Below are positions 4,144 to 38,372 of a stretch of DNA of 64,000 nt, piece after piece. Origin of the DNA: TPA_inf: Saccharomyces (lineage: Eukaryota); the NCBI GenBank assembly GCA_000146045.2, contig BK006949.2, forward strand, positions 544,001 through 608,000. Reading direction: 5' to 3'. Under the pieces are notes generated by a model, which saw only the letters and a list, made by a program, of their open reading frames with translations, made no database searches and had not been told where the DNA came from. A program made the position numbers and the translations under genes. The stretch's first letter is position 1; every line of letters starts with the position of its first letter.

Positions 4144-4470
4144 CCATAGCAGATTATACTATATTTTACGTAGTGAAAAAATAGGTAAAAATTCGTTAAT
4201 TATTCTGATGCCACACCAGAAAATCTGTGGGAAAATTTTTCGAGTCAGAAATGATAACACTAACACAGGCTTCGTTGTTATCGTGCATTGAAGTTAGATA
4301 CTTCTACTATATTTAATCTTTAATAGTGTCATAAAAGTATTATTGGTTTCGGGCGAAAATCGTCATTTTCGCACACAGAACTTCAAAAGAGGAAAGGCCA
4401 AAAGAACTAAAACCGATTACTTCGGGGTGATTTTGTTCTGGCATCTTCTGGCACTCTTGGGCATCCTTAG

Positions 4471-6306
<1,836 letters not shown>

Positions 6307-10577: not shown

Positions 10578-11729
<1,152 letters not shown>

Positions 11730-11956
11730 CTGTTTATTAAATATATAATAACATATTTATTTGTTTAACAAGCCTGAAATAAGAAATTCTTTTATAAATA
11801 CATCATCGAGATGATCATCAAAGTGTCTCTATAGTTAATATAAGCTTATGCAAAGGTTGAAGCCGTTATGTTGTCGTAATTCTAAATTACAGGTTATATT
11901 AAAGAGATTATCTTGACTGATATAAAATTTCTTATCATGGTAGTGATCACAAATAG

Positions 11957-12072
11957 ATCACATGATATATTTTTTATTTTTAATTTTTTTTAATTATAAA
12001 AATAATTTTTTTCTTTAAATTAAACAAAAATAAAAAATTGTTTTTTGTTGGTTAAGATTTCCGAAAATAGAA
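11957..12072 (+). other. CEN16: Point centromere CEN16 (CDEI-CDEII-CDEIII)
   Basis: CDEI is ATCACATG (RTCACRTG consensus) at 11957-11964. It is followed by an ~83-bp tract of more than 90% A+T (CDEII). CDEIII then has the invariant TTCCGAA core, with CCG at 12061-12063. The position between YPL001W and YPR001W matches the known centromere location. Confidence 0.88.
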
Positions 12073-12376
12073 ATATTATTCAGTTGAAAGACAAAAAAAC
12101 ATAAATATTTCTATGAGCAAACAATTTGAACAGAAAAATAAAATTGGGGAAGTGACACACCATGGTAGCGGTTCTAAAGCGAAATCGGCAAAGCGGCTAA
12201 ATAGCAGTTTTGATGACTTACTCCACACTGAAAATGGATGACCTTAAATAGGAGATAAAGCTTTTTCATCCCTATGTATTTAAGATGACTGGCTTGTCAA
12301 GCATTCTAATCATAAAAAAAAGATCGTATTTGATCAAGAATTTATACATAGACGCCGCTAAATAATTGAATACAAA

Positions 12377-13837
12377 ATGGTACAAAGGCTTCTACCGGGC
12401 GCACATATATGCAGAAGGTCCTTCAATTCGTCTGCAATTATAAAGTCTTCTGCATTGACTCTCAAGGAAGCATTAGAAAACGTGATACCTAAGAAAAGAG
12501 ATGCTGTGAAGAAATTGAAGGCCTGTTATGGCAGCACGTTTGTCGGACCGATTACCATTTCATCAGTTCTAGGTGGGATGAGAGGTAATCAGTCAATGTT
12601 TTGGCAAGGAACATCATTAGATCCCGAACATGGCATTAAATTTCAAGGTTTAACGATTGAAGAATGTCAAAATAGATTACCTAATACAGGTATTGATGGC
12701 GATAATTTCCTGCCAGAATCAATGTTATGGCTGTTGATGACAGGTGGTGTGCCAACTTTCCAGCAAGCTGCTTCTTTCAGGAAAGAATTGGCTATTCGTG
12801 GAAGGAAATTGCCACATTATACAGAGAAAGTTTTGTCAAGTTTACCCAAAGATATGCACCCTATGACCCAACTTGCAATTGGTTTAGCATCAATGAACAA
12901 AGGATCCCTCTTTGCTACAAACTACCAAAAGGGCCTCATAGGAAAGATGGAATTTTGGAAAGATACTCTTGAAGATTCGCTAAATTTAATTGCTTCACTC
13001 CCGCTGCTGACTGGGAGAATTTATTCGAACATTACAAATGAGGGACACCCATTAGGTCAATATAGTGAGGAGGTGGATTGGTGTACAAACATATGTTCCC
13101 TGCTCGGCATGACAAATGGAACGAACTCTTCTAATACATGCAACCTTACTTCCCAGCAATCCCTGGACTTCATAAACTTGATGCGGTTATATACCGGTAT
13201 ACATGTAGACCATGAAGGTGGTAATGTTTCTGCTCACACCACCCACTTGGTTGGAAGTGCGTTGAGTGACCCGTATCTCAGCTATTCATCTGGAATAATG
13301 GGATTAGCGGGTCCTTTGCATGGGTTAGCAGCACAAGAAGTAGTAAGGTTTCTCATAGAGATGAACTCTAATATTTCCAGCATTGCACGAGAACAAGAAA
13401 TCAAAGATTATCTTTGGAAAATTTTGAATTCAAACCGTGTGATCCCCGGTTATGGGCACGCAGTTTTGCGTAAACCGGATCCTCGATTTACAGCAATGCT
13501 TGAATTTGCGCAAAAGAGGCCTATTGAATTTGAGAACGACAAGAACGTTTTGTTGATGCAAAAATTGGCAGAAATAGCGCCTAAGGTTTTGTTGGAACAC
13601 GGAAAGAGTAAGAATCCATTTCCCAATGTTGACTCTGCATCGGGGATTTTGTTTTATCATTATGGAATCAGGGAATTATTATTCTTTACCGTCATTTTTG
13701 GGTGTTCAAGGGCCATGGGACCCTTGACACAACTTGTTTGGGATCGCATTCTAGGTTTACCAATTGAAAGGCCCAAGAGTTTGAACTTGGAGGGTCTGGA
13801 AGCACTTACCAAAGCAAGCAATGTTAACAAGTTGTAA
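12377..13837 (+). CDS. CIT3: Mitochondrial citrate / 2-methylcitrate synthase, 486 aa
   Basis: The citrate synthase signature around GYGHAVLR is present. The 486-aa length and position as the first gene right of CEN16 match YPR001W. Confidence 0.88.
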   Translation: MVQRLLPGAHICRRSFNSSAIIKSSALTLKEALENVIPKKRDAVKKLKACYGSTFVGPITISSVLGGMRGNQSMFWQGTSLDPEHGIKFQGLTIEECQNRLPNTGIDGDNFLPESMLWLLMTGGVPTFQQAASFRKELAIRGRKLPHYTEKVLSSLPKDMHPMTQLAIGLASMNKGSLFATNYQKGLIGKMEFWKDTLEDSLNLIASLPLLTGRIYSNITNEGHPLGQYSEEVDWCTNICSLLGMTNGTNSSNTCNLTSQQSLDFINLMRLYTGIHVDHEGGNVSAHTTHLVGSALSDPYLSYSSGIMGLAGPLHGLAAQEVVRFLIEMNSNISSIAREQEIKDYLWKILNSNRVIPGYGHAVLRKPDPRFTAMLEFAQKRPIEFENDKNVLLMQKLAEIAPKVLLEHGKSKNPFPNVDSASGILFYHYGIRELLFFTVIFGCSRAMGPLTQLVWDRILGLPIERPKSLNLEGLEALTKASNVNKL

Positions 13838-16196: not shown

Positions 16197-16289
16197 ATGC
16201 GAATTCTGTGGATCGAACACAGGACCTCCAGATAACTTGACCGAAGTTTTTTCTTCAGTCTGGCGCTCTCCCAACTGAGCTAAATCCGC
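16197..16289 (-). tRNA. tF(GAA): tRNA-Phe (GAA) with ~19-nt intron
   Basis: The reverse complement reads GCGGATTTAGCTCAGTTGGGAGAGCGCCAGACTGAAGA[aaaaacttcggtcaagtta]TCTGGAGGTCCTGTGTTCGATCCACAGAATTCGCA, which is the classic yeast tRNA-Phe sequence with its intron. Confidence 0.93.
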
Positions 16290-28268: not shown

Positions 28269-28339
28269 GCGCAAGTGGTTTAGTGGTAAAATCCAACGTT
28301 GCCATCGTTGGGCCCCCGGTTCGATTCCGGGCTTGCGCA
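28269..28339 (+). tRNA. tG(GCC): tRNA-Gly (GCC)
   Basis: GCGCAAGTGGTTTAGTGGTAAAATCCAACGTTGCCATCGTTGGGCCCCCGGTTCGATTCCGGGCTTGCGCA is the canonical yeast tRNA-Gly(GCC). Confidence 0.93.
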
Positions 28340-37331: not shown

Positions 37332-38061
37332 TCATACGAAAAAAAAAAAAAAAAAAAAAAAAAAACACTCGCAAGAGTAATCTCAATAATAATTTCCGTC
37401 ATTAGCGATTATAGCATGAAGGGAGGCCGAGAGGCCGCTTCTGCGGTATGATAATTAAGTGGTAGTGCAGAGACTCAAAAGGGCGCTGAGAATCTATTAG
37501 AAATGCCATTAAGTGCTTTGAACTCTTGTAGCATGTCTGCTTCTGTAGATATAACACTCTGATGCAGATTTATGAATAATTTCATCACTCGATGTCATCA
37601 GCGTCTTCCTTCATTTGATGCTTTTTTGAAGTTTTCATGGCATGATTTAGCATTTGAAATATAATGAGAAAAGAGCCCTTTAACTTACAGAAGTAAATGT
37701 ACAAAACTTAATCGGAGGAAGAAGCTTAAACATACAAAAACAACAGCAGGATGACTACAAAGAAGCCGTTAAACAAATCTTTTTGTCTCCGTTACTAATT
37801 CACTAATATAGTAATTTTGCTAACCTCTATCGTCATTGAAACTGATTTGTCCTCGAGAAGGCAACAATCAAACTGCAAAAGAAACGTAAAGCAACGACTT
37901 GAACAAGTAATCGCTAACCACATATTGAGATAAGCAGATAATCGCTGTTAAACGTCGTTGATACAGTCAGTCAATATGAATAGTGTAGTATTTTATCGTT
38001 AGGTTCACCTTCCAAATATTCGTTAGATAAAGATGTTTCGGTTTTTTATTTCAACAAAAGA

Positions 38062-38134
38062 GCCTTGTTGGCGCAATCGGTAGCGCGTATGACTCTTAAT
38101 CATAAGGTTAGGGGTTCGAGCCCCCTACAGGGCT
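38062..38134 (+). tRNA. tK(CUU): tRNA-Lys (CUU)
   Basis: GCCTTGTTGGCGCAATCGGTAGCGCGTATGACTCTTAATCATAAGGTTAGGGGTTCGAGCCCCCTACAGGGCT is the canonical yeast tRNA-Lys(CUU). Confidence 0.93.
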
Positions 38135-38372
38135 TTCTTTTTTATTGCATGGTCTATCATCAGGTTCCCTTAACCGCTGCCAAGAAAGAGCACGTGTAAA
38201 AATGGAATGATTATACATCAATTAAACATATAGTCATGGTGGTGTTGACATGTATATAATATACATTAGTTTTGTCATATTTGAAGAATAAATAATATTT
38301 CGATTTGTTCCCGACAATTATTGAAAATGTTTTAAGTGTAGATATTAATATAACAAATCATCAACATGGTTT

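Follow-up and report, generated by a model that had tools for sequence, protein, structure and literature searches.

A tripartite element between HAT1 and CIT3 assigned to CEN16, the point centromere of Saccharomyces cerevisiae chromosome XVI

The definition of the point centromeres of S. cerevisiae dates from the 1980s, and with CEN16 annotated the feature described here is a known one. In their natural form they consist of an 8-bp CDEI, a CDEII of 78 to 86 bp with >90% A+T, and a CDEIII of ca. 26 bp (PMC6077249), and 14 of the 16 centromeres of the species are 117 to 119 bp long (PMC10381965). Runs of A and T are typical of CDEII (PMC6077249; PMC1557759). The point centromere best studied, both structurally and genetically, is CEN3, which has GTCACATG as its CDEI and for which an experiment combining the mitotic stability of an ARS plasmid with mutation of the CCG triplet has been described (PMC10381965). 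On CDEIII, the CBF3 complex sits with Cep3 on CCG and Ctf13 over a central G, and Ndc10 makes contact to the right; the CCG bases are the only ones of the centromere reported to be non-substitutable, and mutations of the left half-site are up to two orders of magnitude milder than those of CCG (PMC6077249). A single Cse4 nucleosome lies over CDEII with two CCAN modules on its unwrapped ends, and these modules embed ca. 150 bp, including ca. 30 bp to the right of CDEIII (PMC10381965; PMC3983907). Regarding their evolution, yeast centromeres combine constrained CDEI and CDEIII with a CDEII that changes faster than neutral DNA and keeps its length (PMC3155921), and two length classes of CDEII, 84 bp and 164 bp, have been reported among yeasts (PMC1557759). 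As for CEN16 itself, its DNA is recovered by ChIP-PCR of Ctf19 and Mif2 (PMC2148226), in a work that does not print the CEN16 primers.

The sequence in question is a 64-kb stretch of DNA, which we refer to as the window. At positions 11957 to 12073 of its forward strand, CDEI, CDEII and CDEIII can be read in this order as 8 + 84 + 25 bp, i.e., 117 bp in total, and this unit is almost certainly CEN16, the Cbf1/CBF3/Cse4 point centromere of S. cerevisiae chromosome XVI. The identification is a reading of the DNA that draws on the flanking genes, the synteny, and the architecture of the element. A first-pass annotation of the window had described an intact three-element point centromere here, and the three elements are indeed all present. 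CDEI (11957 to 11964, forward strand, ATCACATG) fits RTCACRTG and is a predicted E-box-type site for the Cbf1 bHLH dimer. It is followed by CDEII (11965 to 12048, forward strand), an 84-bp spacer with many homopolymer runs of T and A; the eight such runs that reach at least 4 nt make up 57% of its length. The A+T content claimed for CDEII (>90%) was confirmed at 95.2% (80/84, with G or C only at 12013, 12025, 12040, and 12047). CDEIII (12049 to 12073, forward strand, 25 bp, TGGTTAAGATTTCCGAAAATAGAAA; to 12074 by the 26-bp convention) is the putative CBF3 binding site. The consensus for CDEIII is TGTTTWTGNTTTCCGAAANNNAAAAA, with which the 26-mer TGGTTAAGATTTCCGAAAATAGAAAT at 12049 to 12074 agrees at 22 of 26 positions. 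The limits of the element follow the delimitation with an 8-bp CDEI and a 25-bp CDEIII (PMC3155921), which places its end at 12073, one base further than the 12072 given at first. By the same delimitation CDEII measures 84 bp and not ca. 83 bp as had been stated, whereas its placement within 78 to 86 bp holds (PMC6077249). That this range is needed for the wrapping of the Cse4 nucleosome was an overstatement, since it is the range observed in natural centromeres.

Within CDEIII, the CCG triplet (12061 to 12063, forward strand) is the right half-site, read by a Zn2Cys6 domain of Cep3 (PMC6077249, PMC10381965). It is intact, as the first-pass annotation had it, with no CTG variant, and forms part of a TTCCGAA core at 12059 to 12065. 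The position of the left half-site of the TGT/CCG pseudo-palindrome (12049 to 12051, forward strand), in the register of the CEN3 CDEIII probe of PMC6077249, is occupied by TGG, and there is a TGT 3 bp upstream, at 12046 to 12048. Between the two half-sites lies the central G (12056, forward strand), a contact of Ctf13 in CEN3 (PMC6077249). The ca. 30 bp to the right of CDEIII (12074 to 12103, forward strand) would be expected to fall within the Ndc10/CCAN footprint, given the extent described for it (PMC10381965, PMC6077249).

The CEN3 version of CDEIII is printed in PMC6077249, and the core of the CEN16 element, G-ATTT-CCG-AAA, is identical to that probe. CDEI reads RTCACATG in both centromeres, with A at position 1 in CEN16 and G in CEN3. 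The left half-site differs (TGG in CEN16, TGT in CEN3), and the CDEII sequences of the two are unrelated. In CEN3, a 20-bp palindrome on the dyad of CDEII has been reported (PMC10381965), whereas the dyad symmetry of the CEN16 spacer is only marginal, with 24 symmetric pairs vs 20.6 +/- 1.3 in composition-matched shuffles, 2% of which reach 24. A CEN3-like palindrome in CEN16 is therefore not claimed, the symmetry being only marginally above that of the shuffles. What can be seen in CDEII is an imperfect inverted repeat at 11969 to 12038, with 33-nt arms that are 76% complementary and a center near 12003. At the other end of the element, the heptamer GATCACA occurs twice, 11 bp apart, at 11945 to 11951 and at 11956 to 11962, the second copy overlapping CDEI. 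The first amounts to a partial CDEI-like copy just left of CDEI, which does not vary among S. cerevisiae strains and is missing from the other species. No RNA family was found by Rfam in or near the element.

The element is located in the gap between HAT1 (YPL001W; 10605 to 11729, forward strand), whose stop codon lies 227 bp before CDEI, and CIT3, coding for a citrate/methylcitrate synthase (12377 to 13837, forward strand), whose ATG lies 303 bp after CDEIII. The proteins of both ORFs are exact matches to the S. cerevisiae S288C HAT1 and CIT3 entries. By Pfam, the left one has the Hat1_N, GNAT, and fungal HAT1_C domains and the right one is a citrate synthase; residues 1 to 320 of HAT1 are 100% identical to PDB 1BOB. 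The location between these two genes had been correctly given in the first-pass annotation, and so had the anchoring to chromosome XVI, which is backed by the S288C HAT1 (YPL001W) and CIT3 on either side and by the gene order on S. cerevisiae contigs. The same annotation spoke of a divergent gene orientation explained by the centromere. Both genes are, however, on the forward strand; the centromere therefore has the 3' end of HAT1 on its left and the promoter of CIT3 on its right, and gene orientation is in any case not something that a centromere accounts for. The systematic name YPL001W comes from the source annotations; in yeast nomenclature, it stands for the ORF nearest to the centromere on the left arm of chromosome XVI, coded by the Watson strand. 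The name thus places the centromere immediately to the right of HAT1. The order Pil1-like, ULA1-like, SNF8-like, HAT1, CIT3, and PDH1-like is common to seven S. cerevisiae assemblies, and in six S. cerevisiae contigs of 0.91 to 0.95 Mb the HAT1-CIT3 locus is found at ca. 0.59 of their length; the shared order and this position support the assignment to chromosome XVI. In SGD, CEN16 is listed on chrXVI between YPL001W HAT1 and YPR001W CIT3, at chrXVI:555957-556073, with HAT1 at 554605-555729 and CIT3 at 556377-557837, which would fit exactly a window of chrXVI:544001-608000. Compared with this annotated CEN16, our element has the same flanking genes, the same CDEI-CDEII-CDEIII arrangement on the forward strand, and the same 117 bp, and at this level of comparison no difference was found. 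None of the papers searched with 16-mers of the element prints the CEN16 sequence.

Taken alone, the CDEI octamer is unremarkable, and a chance juxtaposition could be considered, in which ordinary A+T-rich intergenic or terminator DNA happens to carry an E-box and a TTCCGAA heptamer. CDEI-type octamers occur in the window at chance frequency (6 matches vs 5.6 expected), TTCCGAA is found six times when both strands are counted, and yeast intergenic DNA is generally A+T-rich. Their combination at the proper spacing is another matter. The pattern TCACRTG-N70-95-TTCCGAA has a single match in the 64 kb, both strands included, vs 0.03 expected per window, and 3 of 100 shuffles had a match. The spacer is by a wide margin the most A+T-rich 84-mer of the 64 kb (0.952 vs 0.869 for the runner-up), and the GC content drops to 9% in the 100-bp profile. 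In a relaxed tripartite scan of the window, with a Meraldi-type motif for CDEI and CCGAA as the core of CDEIII, two further matches came up, but their 75-bp spacers are only 60 to 73% A+T. Within the 64-kb window the unit is single copy, as a point centromere should be. These spacing statistics, together with the recurrence of the tripartite unit beside HAT1 in six other lineages and the selection signature of an invariant CDEI and CDEIII against a hypervariable CDEII (both described below), effectively refute a fortuitous origin, which we consider extremely improbable.

Loci equivalent to that of CEN16 were found in other yeasts through their HAT1 orthologues (L008, L010, L012, L014, L015, and L016), and at all six non-cerevisiae loci fetched HAT1 has directly beside it a CDEI and a CDEIII with TCCGAA, separated by an A+T-rich spacer. 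Three of them belong to Saccharomyces: a lineage designated L008 (CDEI GTCACCTG at 4177 to 4184, CDEII of 84 bp), S. kudriavzevii (L010, CDEI GTCACCTG at 4213 to 4220, CDEII of 83 bp), and S. uvarum (L012, CDEI GTCACATG, CDEII of 85 bp). They share with CEN16 the position between HAT1 and CIT3, the strand, and a CDEII of 83 to 85 bp, but their CDEII cannot be aligned with that of CEN16 and is less A+T-rich (86 to 91%). The alignment of these three with CEN16 is confined to TCAC.TG and TTCCGAAA and leaves out CDEII; the TTCCGAAA motif of CDEIII is kept at all the orthologous loci. Further away, the point centromeres of Nakaseomyces glabratus (L016, CDEI GTCATGTG at 4308 to 4315, CDEII of 77 bp), Eremothecium gossypii (L014, 4738 to 4940, CDEI ATCACGTG, CDEII of 168 bp), and Kluyveromyces lactis (L015, ca. 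5040 to 5260 on the opposite strand, CDEI ATCACGTG, CDEII of 164 bp) resemble CEN16 in the same three components adjacent to HAT1. The CDEII lengths at these HAT1-linked loci agree with the published classes, as expected for each clade (PMC1557759). Some positions do vary: the CDEI of L008 and S. kudriavzevii (GTCACCTG) and that of N. glabratus (GTCATGTG) depart from RTCACRTG, the position of the central G of CEN16 is occupied by C in L008 and by T in S. uvarum, and the TGG left half-site of CEN16 is also found in the S. kudriavzevii and N. glabratus orthologues. The K. lactis unit is inverted relative to CEN16 and still beside HAT1; a LOC1-like gene comes after the centromere in both K. lactis and E. 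gossypii, and in the latter it separates the centromere from the citrate synthase gene. The E. gossypii orthologue of HAT1 is named AGL001W, again a name of the "first gene from the centromere" type. The presence of HAT1-adjacent centromeres in K. lactis, E. gossypii, and N. glabratus indicates that the linkage is older than the divergence of these genera.

These comparisons also bear on whether the unit might be a regulatory module with no centromere, in which a Cbf1 site and nucleosome-excluding poly(dA:dT) would act as a terminator of HAT1 or as an upstream element of CIT3. Cbf1 is in fact also a transcription factor at CACRTG sites (PMC1557759), and CIT3 is on the same strand as the element, 303 bp away. 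Nevertheless, the CIT3 upstream sequence that is conserved between species is a separate block at ca. 12144 to 12285 and not the CDE unit, and there is no promoter rationale for a CCG of the zinc-cluster type at a fixed 83 to 85 bp from an E-box. In K. lactis, moreover, adjacency to HAT1 is kept with the unit inverted and a LOC1-like ORF following it. A purely regulatory role was rejected on the spacing statistics, the recurrence beside HAT1, and the selection signature, and has in our opinion hardly any likelihood.

We analyzed the variation within S. cerevisiae using the window and seven assemblies of the species, i.e., eight sequences aligned over 7 kb. Since the strain loci were retrieved through an identical HAT1 protein, the low diversity of HAT1 itself is biased. 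None of the 33 columns of CDEI and CDEIII is variable among the eight sequences. In contrast, CDEII has 14 variable columns out of 84, vs 26 out of 6917 in the rest of the 7 kb (Fisher P = 7e-18), and so holds 14 of the 40 variable columns of the whole alignment. The difference persists with substitutions only (6/84 in CDEII vs 19/6917 elsewhere, P = 4e-7). Four of the strains (L001, L003, L004, and L005) are identical over the 231 bp aligned around the element, and the right flank of CDEIII, at 12074 to 12103, is invariant save for one A-run indel at 12093. [quoted passage not shown] The pattern found at CEN16 agrees with the published fast evolution of CDEII (PMC3155921). The spacer also comes in different lengths, 84 bp, 81 bp (in L002), and 79 bp (in L007), all within 78 to 86 bp. 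The L002 and L007 alleles owe their lengths mostly to shortened T and A runs, and their indels are located in or beside such runs, corresponding to 11974 to 11985 and 12036 to 12038 of the window, so that these short alleles could partly be homopolymer errors in the two assemblies (GCA_030035935.1 and GCA_030035895.1). Of the runs of at least 5, 4 of 8 inside CDEII carry indels vs 3 of 41 outside (P = 0.009).

The strain data are also relevant to the idea that the element is a relic, i.e., an inactive centromere-like sequence in a chromosome whose functional centromere would be elsewhere. In favor of it, CDEIII disagrees with the consensus at 4 of its 26 positions, and the left half-site reads TGG. 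On the other hand, the CCG triplet is intact, CDEI and CDEIII are under the purifying selection just described, and the 64 kb contain no second candidate. The name of HAT1, YPL001W, puts the centromere immediately to its right, and ChIP signals of Ctf19 and Mif2 at CEN16 have been published (PMC2148226). With the spacing statistics, the recurrence beside HAT1, and the selection signature against it, the relic explanation was likewise rejected and appears most improbable.

Several other features of the region deserve mention. The block at 12144 to 12285, upstream of CIT3, shows much stronger conservation among the four Saccharomyces lineages than the centromere and contains ATTGGGGAAG..., AGCGNTTCTAAAGCGAAAYCGGCAAAGCGGCTAA, TTTTGATGACYTACTCCA, GGATGAC, and a TATA-like TATTTAAG; judging from their sequence and position, these are probably promoter elements of CIT3. 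In one of the strains, L002 (GCA_030035935.1), CIT3 has lost 2 bp of an (AT)3 repeat near codon 10, at the equivalent of 12405 to 12406 of the window. The deletion shifts the reading frame, and the gene is called with 419 aa instead of 486; this could be a true loss-of-function allele or else an error of the assembly. The PDH1-like neighbor is also called short in this strain (316 aa). The window has three tRNA genes: tRNA-Phe(GAA), with a 19-nt intron, at 16198 to 16289 on the reverse strand (detected by Rfam and by ARAGORN with introns allowed and missed by ARAGORN in its default bacterial mode), tRNA-Gly(GCC) at 28269 to 28339, and tRNA-Lys(CTT) at 38061 to 38135. Finally, the 11-bp ARS consensus is matched at every position (ATTTATGTTTT) at 12096 to 12106 on the reverse strand, 23 bp past the end of CDEIII and within the footprint expected for the kinetochore. 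There are six matches to this consensus in the window vs 3.7 expected, and this one is not significant by itself. Nothing on a chromosome XVI origin beside CEN16 was found in PMC3349730. It is unlikely that the 84-, 81-, and 79-bp alleles of CDEII, which also differ by several substitutions, and the TGG half-site are real variation altering the fidelity of chromosome XVI segregation, or else that the ARS consensus match is a functional ORC site coupled to the centromere. Even if either of the two were true, the element would still be the same centromere.

Protein occupancy and segregation function at this copy of CEN16 can be proposed by analogy with the family literature, mostly on CEN3. A Cbf1 bHLH dimer would bind CDEI (ATCACATG) and the CBF3 complex would bind CDEIII, where one Zn2Cys6 domain of Cep3 would read the essential CCG at 12061 to 12063, with Ctf13-Skp1 over the central G at 12056 and Ndc10 contacting the DNA to the right. 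Through Ndc10 and the chaperone Scm3, CBF3 would then direct the deposition of one Cse4 (CENP-A) nucleosome centered on the 84-bp CDEII. On this nucleosome, the CCAN (including Mif2 and Ctf19/COMA) and the outer kinetochore would assemble, and a single microtubule would be bound.

As a piece of comparative genomics, the data presented here reproduce published observations and do not extend them: an invariant CDEI and CDEIII, a hypervariable CDEII, and the linkage between HAT1 and the centromere. The element serves as a positive control, a point centromere that is recognizable from its DNA alone. With it, the organism is confirmed and the window can be placed in the centromeric region of chromosome XVI.
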